Assembly (NCBI RefSeq): GCF_056712565.1
Contig: NZ_CM160072.1
Length of the DNA stretch: 64,000 nucleotides
Reading direction: 5' to 3' (one strand)
Shown: one piece after another, positions 25,967 through 35,210 of the stretch
Numbering within the stretch: position 1 is the first letter of the stretch
Layout: every line of letters begins with the position of its first letter
Position numbers and translations under genes: made by a program
Notes under the pieces: generated by a model
Told to the model about the DNA's origin: nothing
Database searches by the model: none
Seen by the model: the letters and a program-made list of their open reading frames with translations, nothing else

Positions 25967-27071
25967 AAGCTAATAATACATACACAACGGAAAGCGGTGC
26001 TAAAGGCACCAACAACCAGCAACGATGAAACCAGGCGCTAAATGCACCAATAACACAAACTACGCCGACCCAGATAAGCGGGAACATTGCCAACACCACA
26101 CCATGTGGCCCGGTGGTGATGAATTCATTAAACCAGGTAGTGAGATAAATACCAACGCCATAAAGCACAACCAACAGCATAGGAAATATACTGAAGATAC
26201 CGAAGCGGCTAAATAAAAGTCTTTTATGCAGGCGCATACAGACCGCGTAGCCCACAATCCAACGCCGCCAGCGGCGCCACTCCTCACGCGGACTGTTACA
26301 TTCCTGTGGGTATACGATGCAGCGATTCGCCTGCCGAATACGGTAGCCGTTTGCCACCAATGTCCAGGTGAGATCAAGGTCTTCGACTTTAGTACGATCC
26401 GAGAAACCGAACTTACGCAATACATCAGTACGGAACATCCCGCAGGCACCGCTGATGATAAACGGTGCGCCGCCCAGAAGCTGCTGTAGCGTGCGCTTCA
26501 TAACAATCATCGGCAACTTTACGGTCGCGCGGATGTGTAGCTGCTGTAGCGTGCGCTTCATAACAATCATCGGCAACTTTACGGTCGCGCGGATGTGTGG
26601 TAACAGACCCGCGCCTTTCAACGCAGTAGAGGGAATGCCGCCTACGGCATCAGCGCCACGCTCAATTTCCGCCAGCATATAGCCCATTCCGTCTTGATCG
26701 GGCGGAACATAGGTGTCGGCATCACTTAAAAAAACCTGATCGCAGGTGGCGTAATTGAGGCCATTCATCAGCGCACCACCTTTACCGGTATTTTTTTGCG
26801 TGACGGCAACAAAGCGGTCGCCCCATTTGCGTTTGACTTCCGCCATGACCGCTTCGGTATTGTCCATGGAGCCGTCGTTAACGCAAATTACCCGGCAAAA
26901 ATAAGGGTTACGCAGCAGATTATCCAGTGACTGCGCCAGACACGGGCCTTCGTTATAAGCAGGTATAATGGCGTCAATACAGCCTTTCTTTTGGCTGGGC
27001 TTACGCCTTAACGTACTCAGAAACCATAGCAATATTGCTACGGCCATACATATAAAGATCCAGGTTTTCAT
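25815..27071 (-). CDS. yaiP: Integral-membrane family-2 glycosyltransferase (synthase-like topology)
   Basis: 418 aa; N-terminal TM, CVNDGSMDNT and SDAD (DxD) motifs, EEWRRW (QxxRW-like), four or more C-terminal TM helices; contains a 20-aa tandem duplication. Confidence 0.75.
   Translation of the reverse strand: MKTWIFICMAVAILLWFLSTLRRKPSQKKGCIDAIIPAYNEGPCLAQSLDNLLRNPYFCRVICVNDGSMDNTEAVMAEVKRKWGDRFVAVTQKNTGKGGALMNGLNYATCDQVFLSDADTYVPPDQDGMGYMLAEIERGADAVGGIPSTALKGAGLLPHIRATVKLPMIVMKRTLQQLHIRATVKLPMIVMKRTLQQLLGGAPFIISGACGMFRTDVLRKFGFSDRTKVEDLDLTWTLVANGYRIRQANRCIVYPQECNSPREEWRRWRRWIVGYAVCMRLHKRLLFSRFGIFSIFPMLLVVLYGVGIYLTTWFNEFITTGPHGVVLAMFPLIWVGVVCVIGAFSAWFHRCWLLVPLAPLSVVYVLLAYAIWIIYGLIAFFTGREPQRDKPTRYSALVEVSTAYSHPSVTGTEKLSEA
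26479..26598. repeat. Perfect 60-bp tandem duplication (2 copies) inside yaiP
   Basis: agctgctgtagcgtgcgcttcataacaatcatcggcaactttacggtcgcgcggatgtgt at 26479-26538 repeated exactly at 26539-26598; encodes HIRATVKLPMIVMKRTLQQL twice in frame. Confidence 0.95.
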
Positions 27072-27080
27072 GCAATTTGC

Positions 27081-27767
27081 TCAAAGAATCATTTTATGAA
27101 TAACAAAACCTTCACCCAGATCGCTATTGACCTGTTGCCCGCGAAATTGAGCAACTGCACGCAGACGCTCCGGGCGCATATAATCTCGCTGGCTCTGACT
27201 TTTATGTTTTTTTAACGCAGTCAGTTTAAGAGAAAAATATTCTTCTTTCACGGATTCAAAAACCTGAGGCATAAATGAAAGCCAGGTACTTGGTGTTTCA
27301 TAGCCGAGAATTTGCGGAATAGCGCGACAGGCAACCATTGAGGCTTGATAGACTGCAAGATGATCCTGATGGCGGTCAGCATCATGCATGGTATATACAC
27401 GTATAATTTCAACATCAGAGGGAATTTGATTTTTTATGATGTTTTCCAGGGCAGAAATCATATCATTGAGCTGTAAATGAGCGCGGGTGTCAGCAAAATT
27501 AAGATGAATAGTTTGGTGGCACCCTAATATCTTTAGAGCGTTGCGTGATTCTTCGTGGCGATCGATTATTCCATCTACGCCAGAATTACCGGTAGTCATC
27601 ACTACGGTAGCAATATAAATTCCTTTTTGCGCAAGGCGAGCTAGCGATGCGCCACAGCCTAATTCTATATCGTCAGGATGCGCGCCAATGGCAAGGATAC
27701 CCTTTCTTTTATTTGCCGAAGAAAGGATCGCTGAATCTAAAACCTTATCCACTTTATGACACTCCAT
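27081..27767 (-). CDS. yaiS: PIG-L/LmbE-family de-N-acetylase
   Basis: 228 aa; LAIGAHPDDIELGCG and HQDH metal-binding motifs; stop is 9 bp from yaiP start. Confidence 0.75.
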   Translation of the reverse strand: MECHKVDKVLDSAILSSANKRKGILAIGAHPDDIELGCGASLARLAQKGIYIATVVMTTGNSGVDGIIDRHEESRNALKILGCHQTIHLNFADTRAHLQLNDMISALENIIKNQIPSDVEIIRVYTMHDADRHQDHLAVYQASMVACRAIPQILGYETPSTWLSFMPQVFESVKEEYFSLKLTALKKHKSQSQRDYMRPERLRAVAQFRGQQVNSDLGEGFVIHKMIL

Positions 27768-28359
27768 TTTATTTATTATACTACAAGCACAACGACGCCC
27801 CCAGAGACGTAACCTCTGACGCAGACAGATGCTAATTTTTAAGTGTTAAAAATAGCTGATAGCTGAAAAACAAGGGGCTGTCAGGTACGGGGGTAAGAGT
27901 GTGTAATCTTTTATGTAGTTCATATGTTAAGTGTTTGTGTGTTTGGTTTGTATGGTTATTTTATTTTATATATTGTATTTAAATGTGATTTAGTTTGTCA
28001 ATTAATTGCATATTAAAAATATGTTCTATGCACAAATATTGATTATATACATTATGTGAATACATTATGTGGTTGATTGAGAATGATACATTTATATATG
28101 CAATGTGAATATAATGGTTTCATTATATGTGTTGCTGTTAATAAAATAACAGACATTAGAACCTGCTTGTTTATGCATTAATAAAATGAAGTGCAGTAAT
28201 TTACTGAGTTATCAGAGTGGGCGTAATTGCATATTTAATCTTTCCTTTGCCGCTTTTTTGCTAAGAATAAAATCATCTGTACGATAACGACTAATTCTTT
28301 TAATGAATGTTTTTATTCCTGAATACTGCTCCCATAACAAGACGGGGGAGCAGACAATC

Positions 28360-29322
28360 ATGGTAATTTCATCGCGTAACACATTTCTTGCCGCACTGGC
28401 ATTCATCGCTTTTCAGGCGCAGGCGGTGAACGTCACCGTGGCGTATCAAACCTCCGCCGAACCGGCGAAAGTGGCTCAGGCCGACAACACCTTTGCTAAA
28501 GAAAGCGGAGCAACCGTGGACTGGCGTAAGTTTGACAGTGGAGCCAGCATCGTGCGGGCGCTGGCTTCGGGCGATGTGCAAATCGGCAACCTCGGTTCCA
28601 GCCCGTTAGCGGTTGCAACCAGCCAACAGGTGCCGATTGAAGTCTTCTTGCTGGCGTCAAAACTGGGTAACTCCGAAGCGCTGGTGGTAAAGAAAACTAT
28701 CAGTAAACCGGAAGACTTGATTGGTAAACGCATCGCCGTACCGTTTATCTCCACCACCCACTACAGCCTGCTGGCGGCGCTGAAACACTGGGGTATTAAA
28801 CCTGGGCAAGTTGAGATTGTGAACCTGCAGCCGCCCGCAATTATCGCCGCATGGCAGCGGGGAGATATTGATGGTGCTTATGTCTGGGCACCGGCGGTTA
28901 ACGCCCTGGAAAAAGATGGCAAGGTGCTGACCGATTCTGAACAGGTCGGGCAGTGGGGCGCGCCGACACTGGACGTCTGGGTCGTGCGGAAAGATTTTGC
29001 CGAGAAACATCCAGAGGTCGTGAAAGCGTTCGCTAAAAGCGCCATCGATGCTCAGCAACCGTACATTGCTAACCCAGACGCGTGGCTGAAACAGCCGGAA
29101 AACATCAGCAAACTGGCGCGGTTAAGCGGCGTGCCGGAAGGTGACGTTCCGGGGCTGGTGAAGGGAAATACCTATCTGACGCCGCAGCAACAAACGGCAG
29201 AACTGACCGGACCGGTGAACAAAGCGATCATCGACACCGCGCAGTTTTTGAAAGAGCAGGGCAAAGTCCCGGCTGTAGCGAATGATTACAGCCAGTACGT
29301 TACCTCGCGCTTCGTGCAATAA
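28360..29322 (+). CDS. tauA: Taurine ABC transporter periplasmic binding protein
   Basis: Start at MVISSRNTFLAALAFIAFQAQA (signal peptide); 320 aa; track ORF begins 19 codons upstream. Confidence 0.9.
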   Translation: MVISSRNTFLAALAFIAFQAQAVNVTVAYQTSAEPAKVAQADNTFAKESGATVDWRKFDSGASIVRALASGDVQIGNLGSSPLAVATSQQVPIEVFLLASKLGNSEALVVKKTISKPEDLIGKRIAVPFISTTHYSLLAALKHWGIKPGQVEIVNLQPPAIIAAWQRGDIDGAYVWAPAVNALEKDGKVLTDSEQVGQWGAPTLDVWVVRKDFAEKHPEVVKAFAKSAIDAQQPYIANPDAWLKQPENISKLARLSGVPEGDVPGLVKGNTYLTPQQQTAELTGPVNKAIIDTAQFLKEQGKVPAVANDYSQYVTSRFVQ

Positions 29323-30926: not shown

Positions 30927-31774
30927 GTGAACGTCTGAGCATTACCCCGCTGGGGCCGTATATTGGCGCACAAATTACGGGGGCCGACTTAACGCGCCCG
31001 TTAAGCGATAATCAGTTTGAACAGCTTTACCATGCGGTGCTGCGCCATCATGTGGTGTTTCTGCGCGATCAAGCTATTACGCCGCAGCAGCAACGCGCGC
31101 TGGCCCAGCGTTTTGGCGAGCTGCATATTCACCCTGTTTACCCTCATGCTGAAGGGGTTGACGAGATCATCGTCCTGGATACCCATAACGATAATCCGCC
31201 GGATAACGACAACTGGCACACCGATGTGACATTTATTCAAACGCCACCCGCAGGGGCGATTCTGGCGGCGAAAGAGTTACCCTCGACCGGCGGCGATACG
31301 CTCTGGGCCAGTGGTATTGCCGCATATGAGGCGCTCTCTGTTCCCTTCCGCCAGCTGTTGAGCGGGTTGCGTGCGGAGCATGATTTCCGTAAATCGTTCC
31401 CGGAATACAAGTACCGCAAAACCGAGGCTGAGCATCAACGCTGGCGTGAGGCGGTCGCGAAAAATCCACCGTTGCTACATCCGGTGGTGCGAACGCATCC
31501 GGTGACCGGTAAACAGGCGCTGTTTGTGAACGAAGGTTTTACCACACGAATTGTTGATGTCAGCGAGAAAGAGAGCGAAGCCTTGTTAGGTTTTTTGTTT
31601 GCCCATATCACTAAACCGGAGTTTCAGGTGCGCTGGCGCTGGCAACCGAATGATATTGCGATTTGGGATAACCGCGTGACTCAGCACTATGCCAATGCGG
31701 ATTACCTGCCACAGCGGCGGATTATGCATCGGGCGACGATTCTTGGGGATATTCCGTTTTATCGGGCGGGGTAA
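30923..31774 (+). CDS. tauD: Taurine dioxygenase (Fe/2-oxoglutarate dependent)
   Basis: 283-aa ORF, HTD facial-triad motif (WHTDVTF). Confidence 0.92.
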
Positions 31775-31781
31775 GGGGGAA

Positions 31782-31805
31782 ATGCCGGGTTGGATAACCC
31801 GGCAT
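31782..31805. terminator. Hairpin between convergent tauD and hemB (bidirectional terminator candidate)
   Basis: atgccgggtt ggat aacccggcat, 10-bp perfect stem. Confidence 0.55.
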
Positions 31806-31813
31806 AATGATCA

Positions 31814-32788
31814 TTAACGCAGAATCTTCTTCTCAGCCAAATCCAGCGCAAAGTAGCTGAAAATCAGATCCGCACCCGCACGCTTAATCGAACCTAAGCT
31901 TTCGAGCACGACTTTCTCTTCATCTATAGCACCCGCCAGCGCGGCGAACTTAATCATCGCGTACTCACCGCTCACCTGATACGCGCCAATCGGCAATTCA
32001 GTACGTTCACGCAGCTCACGCACGATGTCGAGGTATGCTCCGGCAGGTTTAACCATCAGGCAGTCTGCGCCCTGGGCTTCATCCAGCAGCGACTCACGAA
32101 TCGCCTCACGACGGTTCATTGGGTTCATCTGATAGCTTTTGCGGTCGCCTTTTAATGCGCTTCCGGCAGCTTCACGGAACGGGCCATAAAAGGAGGAGGC
32201 GAACTTGGTCGAATACGACATAATCGCCGTATCTTTAAAGCCCGCAGCGTCCAGCGCCTGGCGAATCGCCTGTACCTGACCATCCATCGCGGCAGAAGGG
32301 GCGATGAAGTCTGCGCCTGCAGCAGCTGCAACCACAGCTTGCTTGCCTAAATTTTCCAGAGTCGCGTCGTTGTCGACGCCATGCTCGCACAGAACACCGC
32401 AGTGACCGTGAGATGTGTATTCACAGAAGCAGGTGTCTGACATAACGATCATTTCTGGCACGGTCTGCTTGCAGATGCGCGACATACGCGCCACCAGTCC
32501 ATCTTCCCGCCAGGCATCGCTGCCGGTTTCATCGGTATGGTGAGAGATGCCGAAAGTCATCACGGAACGAATACCGGCGTTGGCGATGCGTTCAATTTCG
32601 CGTGCCAGATGTTTCTCTGGAATGCGCATCACGCCTGGCATGGCTTCAACGGCTTTGTAGTCGTCAATTTCTTCTTCAACAAAGATCGGCAACACCAGGT
32701 CGTTAAGGCTAAGTGTTGTCTCTTCAAACATAGCGCGCAGCGCAGGAGATTTGCGCAGGCGACGAGGGCGTTGGATTAAATCTGTCAT
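31814..32788 (-). CDS. hemB: Porphobilinogen synthase (delta-aminolevulinate dehydratase)
   Basis: Start at [18 protein letters not shown]; 324 aa; track ORF extended 11 codons. Confidence 0.92.
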
Positions 32789-33313
32789 GGTCTGCCTGAT
32801 GTTTGTGGAATCGAGGAGCATAGTATACCTGAAGCAGGCTGGGTGTGTTTTACGAAAGTTGTCGCGATGTTGACAAAAAGAGAATGAAAAAGAGGTCAGG
32901 ACATCTTTGTAATAGAAATAGCAATAATTTCATATTCACTGAAAATATTTTTAATTTTTATTTATAGCCATAGATTATTGTTTTTGGGGATTTGGTGACG
33001 TTTCCAAAAAGTGAATAGCTTAAAGTTCATTGCTTATTGATACATTATTTGTCTGTTTTTGTTGTTTTATATTTTCATGGTCTATGTTTTAAAATTAACG
33101 CTTTCATTAACGTATTGAAATATTGTGTTTTTGTTATTTCTTTCTTTGTGTGTGTTCACGTGCTTTATATATGTCCGCAATCGGACTTAGGGGAAAGAAT
33201 AATTGAACCATTCCTCTATAACGCCGCATAATCGTAAACGCGAAACATAATATGTTTTCTATGCATTGATAATTGATGGATCAACTTATTACGTCCCTGA
33301 GGAGGGATGACAA

Positions 33314-33970
33314 ATGCACTCCTGGAAAAAGAAACTTGTAGTATCACAATTAGCATTGGCTTGCACTCTGGCTATCACCTCTCAGGCTAATGCAGCAAAC
33401 TATGATACCTGGGGGTATCATGACAACACCACGACCGATTTAGTTTGGCCGTATGACACTGACAATGATGGAATTGCCGATGCTGGCGGCATGGACCCGA
33501 TGGGTTCAGACGGTAACTACGTAACTTACAATGGTTTTGTTTACTATAACAATGCCAATGGCGATTTCGATACTGTCTTTAAAGGCGATACCGTTAACGG
33601 TACCATTTCTACTTATTACTTGAATCATGATTACGCTAGCGGTTCTGTTAACCAGGTAGATATCAGCAATTCAGTAATTCATGGGGCAATCACCTCTGAA
33701 CTGCCATTTGGTTATTACAGCATTACTCCTGCAGAAGTTAATGCTAAAGGTGAAGTTGTAACTCCACAGACCTATAATGGCTATAATTTCTATAACGGAA
33801 TCACTACTGACCTTGACTACAATTGGTACGATGGTGACGTATTCACTCTGAACGTATCCAATTCCACCATTGATGATGACTATGAAGCTCTTTACTTCAC
33901 TGACACATATCTTGATGGTGATAAATCTAAGTCAACCAATGAAACGTTCTATACCGCTCTGGGTGTTGCA
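33314..33970 (+). pseudogene. yaiT: Autotransporter-family protein, N-terminal fragment, truncated by IS2
   Basis: Signal peptide MHSWKKKLVVSQLALACTLAITSQANA, N/T/D-rich passenger repeats; reading frame runs into the IS2 end at 33971. Confidence 0.7.
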
Positions 33971-33981
33971 TGGATTTGCCC

Positions 33982-34887
33982 CTATATTTCCAGACACCTG
34001 TTATCACTTAACCCATTACTGGCTTGCTGCCGTAGATATTCCCGTGGCGAGCGATAACCCAGTGCACTATGCGGATGCCATTCGTTATAATGCTCGAACG
34101 CCTCTGCAAGGTTCTTTGCTGCCGTTAACCCGTCTGGTTTGGGCATGACACTGATGTAGTCACGCTTTATCGTTTTCACGAAGCTCTCTGCTATGCCGTT
34201 ACTCTCCGGACTCCGCACCGCCGTGCTCTTCGGTTCAAGCCCCAACATCCGGGCAAACTGCCGTGTTTCATTAGCCCGGTAGCATGAACCATTATCCGTC
34301 AGCCACTCTACTGGAGACGCCGGAAGCTCGTTGCCGAAGCGGCGTTCCACCGCTCCCAGCATGACGTCCTGTACTGTTTCACTGTTGAAGCCGCCCGTAG
34401 TGACCGCCCAGTGCAGTGCCTCACGGTCACAGCAGTCCAGCGCGAACGTGACTCGCAGTTTTTCTCCGTTATCACAGCGGAACTCGAACCCGTCAGAGCA
34501 CCATCGCTGATTACTTTCTTTCACAGCCACTCTGCCTGTATGTGCCCGTTTCGATGGCGGTACAGCAGGTTTTCGCTCAAGCAACAGCGCATTCTGGCGC
34601 ATGATCCGGTAAACACGTTTGGCATTGATCGCAGGCATACCATCAAGTTCTGCCTGTCTGCGAAGCAGCGCCCATACCCGACGATAACCATACGTGGGCA
34701 GCTCTCCGATAACATGGTGTATACGGAGAAGCACATCCGTATCATCAGTGTGACGACTGCGGCGGCCATCCATCCAGTCATCGGTTCGTCTGAGAATGAC
34801 GTGCAACTGCGCACGCGACACCCGGAGACAACGGCTGACTAAGCTTACTCCCCATCCCCGGGCAATAAGGGCGCGTGCGCTATCCAC
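33982..34887 (-). CDS. insD: IS2 transposase OrfB
   Basis: 301-aa ORF with DDE integrase core, ends [29 protein letters not shown]. Confidence 0.9.
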
Positions 34888-35210
34888 TTTTTTGCCCGTC
34901 CATATTCAACGGCTTCTTTGAGGAGTTCATTTTCCATCGTTTTCTTGCCGAGCAGGCGCTGGAGTTCTTTAATCTGCTTCATGGCGGCAGCAAGTTCAGA
35001 GGCAGGAACAACCTGTTCTCCGGCGGCGACAGCAGTAAGACTTCCTTCCTGGTATTGCTTACGCCAGAGAAATAACTGGCTGGCTGCTACACCATGTTGC
35101 CGGGCAACGAGGGAGACCGTCATCCCTGGTTCAAAGCTCTGCTGAACAATTGCGATCTTTTCCTGTGTGGTACGCCGTCTGCGTTTCTCCGGTCCTAAGA
35201 CATCAATCAT
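34845..35210 (-). CDS. insC: IS2 transposase OrfA (HTH)
   Basis: Start at [26 protein letters not shown]; 121 aa; overlaps insD as expected for programmed -1 frameshifting. Confidence 0.9.

Follow-up and report, generated by a model that had tools for sequence, protein, structure and literature searches.

The 64,000-nucleotide stretch analyzed here (the window; contig NZ_CM160072.1 of NCBI RefSeq assembly GCF_056712565.1) is Escherichia coli DNA and carries the gene order tauABCD (+), hemB (-), the autotransporter gene yaiT (+), iprA (+), ampH (-) and sbmA (+). Our subject is the AT-rich DNA that separates the divergent hemB and yaiT genes and the yaiT-iprA pair that lies behind it. Over positions 32700-33400 the window and the type strain ATCC 11775 / DSM 30083 (phylogroup B2) share 100% identity, and the annotation of that identical sequence places hemB, which encodes porphobilinogen synthase, at 31814..32788 on the minus strand. 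The HemB protein is itself 100% identical across B2, K-12 and O157. The autotransporter gene is known as yaiT or yaiT/yaiU in K-12, ehaB in O157:H7, upaC in uropathogenic Escherichia coli (UPEC) and seaB in Salmonella (PMC8281228, PMC13248724), with EhaB, UpaC and YaiT being products of one and the same gene (PMC8281228). When aligned with its intact ATCC 11775 counterpart (2988 nt), the upaC-type allele in the window is seen to be split by the insertion sequence IS2 (33971..35301, minus strand) into a 5' fragment coding for the signal peptide and the beginning of the passenger domain (33314..33970, plus strand) and a 3' fragment coding for the remaining passenger, the autochaperone and the beta-barrel (35302..37637, plus strand). 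The intact ATCC 11775 protein has the domains of the type Va autotransporters of the EhaB/UpaC/SeaB group (Pfam Autotransporter, 1e-46; matches to Pertactin and AC_1; TIGR01414, 3e-88). The iprA gene (37723..38346, plus strand; 207 amino acids) starts 85 bp past the yaiT stop codon on the same strand. It is the gene also called yaiV, and its product matches the published IprA (Herman et al. 2016, J Bacteriol), annotated as "hydrogen peroxide resistance inhibitor", at the level of an NCBIfam equivalog (1e-137). Hence, the names yaiT, yaiV and IS2 that a sequence-only reading of this DNA had proposed were all correct.

To compare the locus across species, we collected 80 Enterobacteriaceae species loci seeded on IprA and aligned 67 hemB-yaiT intergenic regions. 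The hemB-yaiT-iprA-ampH arrangement, already described in a 2026 paper on SeaB (PMC13248724), is kept in 70 of the 78 informative species loci, and yaiT and iprA are adjacent in 70/78. The locus, the name of the regulator, the synteny and the silencing of this gene by H-NS are known. What we add is a precise map of putative conserved cis-elements and comparative evidence that yaiT and iprA form a portable module that travels with a palindromic site. As a whole, a divergent hemB/yaiT control region in three parts coupled to a portable yaiT-iprA module is, in our judgment, the probable explanation of the locus.

Anatomy of the hemB-yaiT control region

The sequence-only reading had described the DNA upstream of yaiT as an AT-rich leader of about 490 bp. 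Its AT-richness stands: the GC content of positions 32822-33313 is 31.9% compared to 51.2% for the whole window, only 0.6% of 492-bp intervals reach a value this low, and the sequence contains 15 runs of A or T of at least four bases. The extent and the term "leader" needed revision. The annotated start of hemB is at 32788 and not at 32821, which makes the intergenic region 525 bp long (32789-33313). It is a divergent promoter region shared with hemB, in which the predicted yaiT leader takes up about 75 nt only. Among the 36 intergenic regions of the matching 50 kb of ATCC 11775, it ranks second in length and fifth from the bottom in GC content. Its AT-richness is unusual, not unique, the region upstream of tauA being longer and more AT-rich. 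The latter is a long AT-rich gap (27581-28483) between tauA and a divergent PIG-L deacetylase gene, and its ATCC 11775 counterpart is 607 bp long with 31% GC. Two other stretches of the window, 44041-44843 (near iraP and phoA by coordinate conversion) and 2281-2823, also fall below 36% GC in 492-bp intervals.

The conservation profile of the 67 aligned regions separates three blocks. The block next to hemB (32789..32865, minus strand) is conserved, has 49% GC and includes a candidate -10 element (TATACT, 32827-32822); its position and conservation suggest that it is the promoter and 5' untranslated region (5' UTR) of hemB rather than of yaiT. Extreme AT-richness is limited to the central spacer (32866..33172, either strand), 307 bp with 26.1% GC, which is a probable tract for H-NS binding and nucleation. 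Its sequence is unconserved across the 67 loci; its composition and length are kept, all 67 intergenic regions measuring 370-620 bp with 31-44% GC. The last 141 bp (33173-33313) are strongly conserved and contain the palindrome, promoter and leader described below. A search for repeats in the intergenic region returned weak imperfect AT-rich repeats only.

Comparison of the upaC-type allele of the window with the ehaB-type allele of O157 reproduced this pattern within the species. Identity between the two alleles reaches 96-100% in hemB, iprA and the beta-barrel and 98% in the promoter/leader block, compared to 79-88% in the spacer and 24-70% in the passenger. Constraint is thus concentrated in the promoter/leader block, which has a fast-evolving stretch on either side. 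Relative to O157, the passenger (33314-33970 and 35302-36500) forms a sharp island of within-species allelic replacement that includes the AT-rich spacer. On the other side of hemB, the tauD-hemB gap (31774-31813) is 39 bp in the window versus 106 bp in K-12 and O157, the difference being an element of about 67 bp that is missing from the B2 background of the window.

Within the conserved block, a promoter scan and the alignment converged on the same predicted sigma-70 promoter for yaiT (33203..33232, plus strand), with a -35 hexamer TTGAAC (33203-33208), an 18-nt spacer and a -10 hexamer CATAAT (33227-33232). Both hexamers are invariant in 66-67 of the 67 loci, the -10 being part of an invariant GCATAAT, and the 18 nt between them are fixed in length and free in sequence. 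A spacer that varies in sequence and not in length between invariant hexamers is the footprint of a real promoter. Transcription is predicted to start at 33239-33241. Exactly 16 nt before the -35, at a spacing fixed across loci, lies the 14-bp palindrome GTCCGCAATCGGAC (33173..33186, either strand), whose GTCCG-N4-CGGAC sequence is unique within the window. Its column counts in the 67 loci are G67 T67 C66 Y67 G62-N4-C67 G58 G52 A67 C67. Being centered at about -60 relative to the predicted start, the palindrome is suitably placed for the binding of an activator or an anti-silencer, and we consider it a candidate operator for a dimeric regulator, possibly IprA. Its 5-N4-5 geometry is that of FNR-type sites, although its sequence differs from both the CRP box and the FNR box. 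Other candidate sites were discarded. A CRP box at about 33148-33160 (TGTGTGTTCACG) is a poor match located in the unconserved spacer, and Fur and RcsB boxes matched the conserved blocks poorly. We found no mention of the conserved palindrome/promoter/leader architecture in the accessible literature on UpaC, EhaB and SeaB/YaiU.

The predicted 5' UTR of yaiT (33239..33313, plus strand) is about 75 nt long in the window and 57-79 nt among genera. It has a folding energy of -22.1 kcal/mol (z = -2.0) and begins with a 5'-terminal stem-loop (33242-33258) whose sequence changes by genus and still folds (GAAACAU/AUGUUUU, GCAAU/AUUGC, GGCAAUA/UAUUGCC). Downstream, the box TTGATGGATCAAC (33273-33285; consensus UUGAYGGAYMAAC) displays a GGA (33278-33280) in the loop of UUGA-UGGA-UCAA, and this GGA is kept in 66 of the 67 loci. 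Another GGA is found in GAGGAGGGA over the Shine-Dalgarno sequence, and a UGGAA at codon 4. In all, four GGA motifs crowd within about 50 nt around the ribosome-binding site, two of them in or near the Shine-Dalgarno, with some 22 nt between those of the loop and the Shine-Dalgarno. The Shine-Dalgarno is, in turn, enclosed by an invariant hairpin (GTCCCT-GAGG-AGGGAT, 33293-33308) predicted in all species. An upstream open reading frame (ORF) starting at the ATG inside TTGATGGAT was rejected, because the ATG is ACG in many genera and the indels are not multiples of three.

The GGA pattern of the yaiT leader resembles that of leaders repressed by CsrA. Such a design points to translational repression, for which CsrA would be the most likely agent. 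Partial support is available from published work: Kulkarni 2014 had yaiT' (b4580) among the predicted targets of CsrA, and its ribosome footprints increase significantly in a csrA mutant (+0.63 log2) at an unchanged RNA level (Potts 2017 Supplementary Data 2). Two sets of observations weigh against this interpretation. The footprint effect is small and CsrA crosslinking immunoprecipitation sequencing (CLIP-seq) detected no peak on yaiT in K-12 (Potts 2017). Furthermore, covariation support for the Shine-Dalgarno hairpin is absent across the aligned loci, as it has to be for a hairpin that is invariant. The invariant hairpin could also repress translation alone. On balance, CsrA control of the yaiT leader is a tentative assignment, to which we give somewhat less than an even chance.

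The yaiT-iprA module and the possible role of IprA

Conserved adjacency at the canonical locus says little about a functional link between yaiT and iprA, because the whole neighborhood is syntenic and co-occurrence is confounded. More informative were five IprA paralogue proteins (55-59% identical) encoded at four or five sites outside the canonical locus. These sites are dissimilar. L085 and L088/L089 have LacI and TRAP-transporter genes as neighbors and differ in their left flanks; L087 belongs to an island that also contains an integrase; L090 follows a chaperone-usher fimbrial operon; and L091 has remnants of IS21 on one side and a type VI secretion cluster on the other. In all five paralogue loci, a YaiT-family autotransporter of 950-960 amino acids is encoded 85-90 bp upstream in the same orientation. 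The cassette autotransporters are 80-83% identical to YaiT in the beta-domain and 44-46% in the passenger. Each cassette also has an AT-rich upstream gap (261-811 bp, 32-41% GC) with the palindrome and the -35/-10 pair, as well as a hairpin just before iprA in the same place and with a different stem sequence. The recurrence of adhesin, control region and iprA in relocated copies (5/5) indicates that they move together as a portable module. The module lends comparative support to a functional link between yaiT and iprA; it is the new result of our analysis and was not found in the literature that we examined.

Several features of the canonical copy are consistent with a two-gene transcription unit: the shared strand, the short gap between the genes, and their joint inheritance and transfer. 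We found no sigma-70-like promoter in the approximately 420 bp before iprA in E. coli. In addition, the yaiT promoter can outlast yaiT itself: in Kluyvera genomosp. 1, TTGAAC-N18-CATAAT persists 123 bp ahead of iprA, and Salmonella diarizonae keeps both the palindrome and the yaiT promoter. The intercistronic region (37640..37703, plus strand) contains a weak hairpin (TTCTTC-ACTCC-GAAGAA, 37640-37656), at the place where other genera have a canonical terminator, and a perfect 11-bp hairpin (ATGCCCGTCAA-GGAT-TTGACGGGCAT, 37678-37703, plus strand) just before the iprA Shine-Dalgarno. Different stems occupy the same intercistronic place across genera and paralogues. Co-transcription is, on the other side, disfavored by the canonical terminator found right after yaiT in Enterobacter and several other genera and by the CyuR-like site reported at -75 of yaiV (PMC11408624). 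Because of these terminators and this site, a separate promoter for iprA is possible. We consider co-transcription combined with partial termination the likeliest arrangement, perhaps supplemented by a minor promoter. As a separate observation, the CyuR-like motif of E. coli W (GAAGAAATACTGGTAATTTAATC) has a 2-bp deletion in the window (37651-37671). The same deletion is present in one other fetched Escherichia locus, L007 (GAAGAAATA--GGTAATTTAATC), and would alter the spacing of the half-sites.

The sequence-only reading had assigned to YaiV a CRP/FNR-like helix-turn-helix, and this prediction was borne out for IprA by a Pfam HTH_46 match (6e-31) and by structural comparisons over the full length of the protein. 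The AlphaFold model (pLDDT confidence score of 80) comprises strands at residues 23-98, a helix at 112-132 and a helix-turn-helix at 162-200, which is the predicted equivalent of the N-terminal beta-barrel, long dimerization helix and C-terminal winged helix-turn-helix of the CRP/FNR architecture. The top Foldseek matches of the model (CRP, Clp, Vfr and NtcA) were full length, with E values of about 3e-9 and a probability of 1.0. In keeping with this, the hhalign alignment of IprA and CRP is collinear and the helix-turn-helix regions align residue for residue, with IprA R174, S175 and E179 opposite R180, E181 and R185, the base-contacting residues of CRP. The likeness to the CRP/FNR superfamily (CRP, Clp, Vfr, NtcA, FNR) is one of predicted fold, whereas sequence identity is only about 15% and the residues that contact cAMP are absent. 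The phosphate-binding cassette for the cyclic nucleotide (G71, E72, R82 and S83 in CRP) is not preserved, the cAMP-contacting R82 and S83 being replaced by I and P, and the Pfam cNMP_binding profile scored 17.6 bits, under its cut-off of 27.5. From the model, IprA would be a CRP-family-like DNA-binding dimer that lacks the cyclic-nucleotide feature.

IprA is described as a DNA-binding regulator tied to oxidative-stress (peroxide) resistance and fimbrial genes. Its gene reportedly lies in a two-gene operon in Salmonella, and iprA mutants have global phenotypes. We found no report of a DNA target of IprA or of an effect of IprA on yaiT in the accessible literature. In complete E. coli genomes the gene is nearly universal (5,375 of 5,426 at 96% identity or above). 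About 88 sequences of IprA share one and the same recognition helix, ISRSVVAEVL, the exception being the L090 paralogue (E179D). This conservation coexists with rapid divergence in the rest of the protein. Between E. coli and Enterobacter, IprA is about 50% identical compared to 85% for AmpH, 90% for SbmA and 94% for HemB; it diverges much faster than its neighbors, yet its recognition helix does not change. The GC content of iprA (37723-38346) is only 39%.

These features lend themselves to a reading in which IprA acts as a dedicated transcription factor of yaiT at the palindrome. A cAMP-blind IprA would bind GTCCG-N4-CGGAC at the promoter of its own cassette (about -60) and from there activate the yaiT-iprA unit, counter its silencing by H-NS, repress it or autoregulate. 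As iprA lies behind yaiT, this would close a feedback loop and make the pair an adhesin switch. Consistent with such a role, autotransporter and IprA are paired in at least five genomic contexts and always with the palindrome, the predicted fold is that of a CRP/FNR-like protein with residues facing the base-contacting positions of CRP, the invariant recognition helix is matched by a near-invariant site, and the geometry of the site is of the FNR type. Moreover, the only paralogue with a changed helix (E179D in L090) is also the only one with a symmetric change in the palindrome, ATCCG-N4-CGGAT, a co-variation that is a single case. Several observations argue in the opposite direction. At least six lineages with an absent, deleted or degraded yaiT (three Kluyvera, Pluralibacter, S. 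diarizonae and a C. amalonaticus) still have an intact iprA (207-208 amino acids), and two Kluyvera species that retain iprA and the promoter have a decayed palindrome. IprA also has global phenotypes in peroxide resistance and fimbrial genes, and no autotransporter gene adjoins those for the distant IprA-like proteins of Klebsiella and of an Enterobacter plasmid. With the evidence divided in this way, direct control of yaiT by IprA seems to us possible and somewhat unlikely. The earlier suggestion that yaiV could be a dedicated regulator consequently survives in one part, the coupling seen in all five paralogues, and falters in the other: for a gene that outlives yaiT and has known global effects, a dedicated role is hypothetical.

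In a search for more distant YaiT orthologues, aimed at autotransporters that lack iprA, the beta-domain family formed a single cluster at 50% identity, and its next relatives were 39% identical or less. Distant IprA-like proteins encoded on plasmids (27-32% identity) showed no consistent link to autotransporters. One of them, in L097 (Rahnella victoriana plasmid NZ_CP089920.1, 1-6606), is a full-length protein (30%) encoded divergently beside a chaperone-usher fimbrial operon that has a second winged-helix regulator on its other flank, and may represent a further case of an adhesin coupled to a regulator of the CRP-like type. The 362-kb Enterobacter hormaechei "plasmid" NZ_CP056156.1 (L095) carries the chromosomal hemB-autotransporter-iprA-ampH-sbmA-ddlA block and is either a chromid-like replicon or a misassigned piece of chromosome.

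The AT-rich spacer and its probable role in H-NS silencing

The sequence-only reading had attributed the AT-rich DNA upstream of yaiT to xenogeneic silencing. The silencing part of this proposal finds support in published experiments. UpaC is referred to as an H-NS-repressed UPEC autotransporter (Allsopp 2012 as cited in PMC5012682) and Salmonella yaiU as a "previously reported H-NS-repressed gene" (PMC10657408). H-NS binds the Salmonella yaiU promoter in electrophoretic mobility shift assays, isothermal titration calorimetry (Kd 0.29-0.46 uM) and chromatin immunoprecipitation with quantitative PCR, and c-di-GMP blocks this binding (PMC10657408). The hundreds of AT-rich base pairs expected at a silenced promoter are present in the window, most markedly in the core of the region. 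A spacer conserved in composition and length and not in sequence is, furthermore, what a protein that recognizes AT-richness rather than a specific sequence would be expected to use as its platform. One observation runs counter to this assignment: the high-affinity H-NS motif (TCGATAAATT-like) is not enriched in the region, which has two matches with two mismatches each. A high-affinity motif is not obligatory for H-NS binding. We conclude that silencing of this adhesin promoter by H-NS, already published for the gene, is right and should extend to this strain.

The term "xenogeneic" is less apt. Signs of horizontal acquisition are present in the mosaic passenger alleles and in the paralogous cassettes, which reside in islands or beside insertion sequences. 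The canonical copy is, however, a positional orthologue, and the hemB-yaiT-iprA-ampH arrangement, conserved in most informative loci, is ancestral, which makes the term misleading for this copy.

An AT-rich non-coding gap could also arise passively, from relaxed selection and AT-biased mutation, and have no regulatory role in yaiT expression. The unconserved sequence of the spacer (about 20% diverged within E. coli), the lack of enrichment of the specific H-NS motif and the presence nearby of another intergenic region that is equally AT-rich are all compatible with such an origin. It does not account for the retention of length and low GC in the 67 loci and in the five relocated cassettes, nor for the published experiments on H-NS binding and repression in orthologues. 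Buttiauxella is particularly instructive because the gene upstream is not hemB, yet a 596-bp AT-rich region precedes yaiT and carries the same palindrome, -35, GGA box and Shine-Dalgarno hairpin. An AT-rich region retained without hemB belongs to yaiT. A passive origin is, for these reasons, improbable. Even less credible, to the point of being nearly negligible, is that the unusually long gap conceals an unannotated gene for a small protein or small RNA, given that the spacer has no sequence conservation, that the K-12-type, O157 and ATCC 11775 RefSeq records annotate nothing in it, and that its one candidate, a 64-codon ORF at 33037-33231, has a TTG start and was rejected as a gene because stop codons interrupt it in other Escherichia. 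Consistent with this, a scan of positions 31500-39800 against Rfam, with E values up to 1, found no RNA family.

State of the locus in this strain and comparison with known systems

The IS2 element that splits yaiT has the attributes of this member of the IS3 family: a length of 1331 bp, two overlapping ORFs (HTH_Tnp_1 and rve), an NCBIfam match to "IS2 transposase TnpB" (3e-215) and a 5-bp target duplication (TTGCA, 33966-33970 and 35302-35306). Identical 1331-bp copies are present in other E. coli. The insertion itself is particular to this strain, as the IS2/yaiT junction was found in 0 of 5,426 complete E. coli genomes. Moreover, the flanks of the element are 99.98% identical to the intact allele, and strains in which yaiT is whole have exactly the same control region. 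The sequence-only description of a decaying locus is thus accurate for this strain, in which yaiT is broken, and inaccurate elsewhere: what appears as decay is one recent insertion and not long-term erosion. In K-12, yaiT carries an independent IS3 insertion at another site in the gene. If yaiT and iprA are co-transcribed, the IS2 could lower the expression of iprA in this strain. Also particular to the window relative to the ATCC 11775 assembly is a perfect 60-bp tandem duplication (26479-26598; 2.0 copies, 100% match) inside the glycosyltransferase gene yaiP, which would add 20 in-frame codons.

Combining these elements, the locus probably operates as follows. The approximately 77 bp beside hemB would carry the hemB promoter, and the spacer of about 307 bp and 26% GC would provide the platform from which H-NS silences yaiT. 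In the last 141 bp, the predicted sigma-70 promoter TTGAAC-18-CATAAT would drive yaiT under the influence of an activator or anti-silencer bound to the palindrome, and the enclosure of the ribosome-binding site in an invariant hairpin among GGA motifs would permit translational repression, most likely by CsrA. Transcription of iprA would probably begin, at least in part, at the yaiT promoter and pass an intercistronic hairpin or terminator that is leaky, and the yaiT-iprA module would take this regulatory region along when relocated. In this strain, a recent IS2 insertion has broken yaiT and left the control region untouched.

No general principle is altered by these findings, and the locus is of modest interest. 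EhaB, UpaC and SeaB are, nonetheless, conserved adhesins of E. coli and Salmonella and vaccine candidates that are silent in the laboratory, so the signal that switches them on is a practical bottleneck. The map of cis-elements and the module make the hypothesis that IprA regulates yaiT testable. If true, the link between IprA and the palindrome could join an orphan CRP-like oxidative-stress regulator to the control of an adhesin, and the effects of IprA on peroxide resistance and fimbrial genes would be secondary outputs of an adhesin-linked regulator.

The closest known systems are UpaC of CFT073, EhaB of enterohemorrhagic E. coli O157:H7 and SeaB/YaiU of Salmonella, which are the same gene, adjacent to hemB and upstream of iprA; the copy in the window differs in being interrupted by a strain-specific IS2. 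We infer that the 995-amino acid B2-type allele in the window is the "upaC" form described for extraintestinal pathogenic E. coli and B2 strains (PMC8281228). Antigen 43 (flu), an autotransporter adhesin of E. coli whose promoter is phase-variable through OxyR and Dam, likewise has a regulatory element on the downstream side of the promoter. By contrast, the yaiT leader has a single GATC that is mostly lost among genera (GGATC to GGACC or GGACA). With one unconserved GATC and no triple-GATC OxyR site, a Dam/OxyR switch is unsupported for yaiT, and we rejected phase variation of this type. The leader compares better with those repressed by CsrA, such as pgaA, glgC and cstA, which have several GGA motifs, one of them in a hairpin loop and one over the Shine-Dalgarno. 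The product of yaiT also promotes biofilm, which adds to the likeness. The yaiT leader differs in that the GGA is in a loop only in the Escherichia/Citrobacter clade and in the missing CLIP-seq peak. As a system, yaiT-iprA is also reminiscent of H-NS-silenced adhesin promoters with a cis-encoded regulator, for example AutA/AutR with an autotransporter adhesin in avian pathogenic E. coli, in which, according to PMC4844996, an AT-rich, H-NS-repressed adhesin promoter is accompanied by an adjacent regulator gene with global effects. Here, by comparison, the regulator gene lies downstream in the same orientation, and its product, which is predicted to fold like CRP, is a putative regulator of the adhesin.

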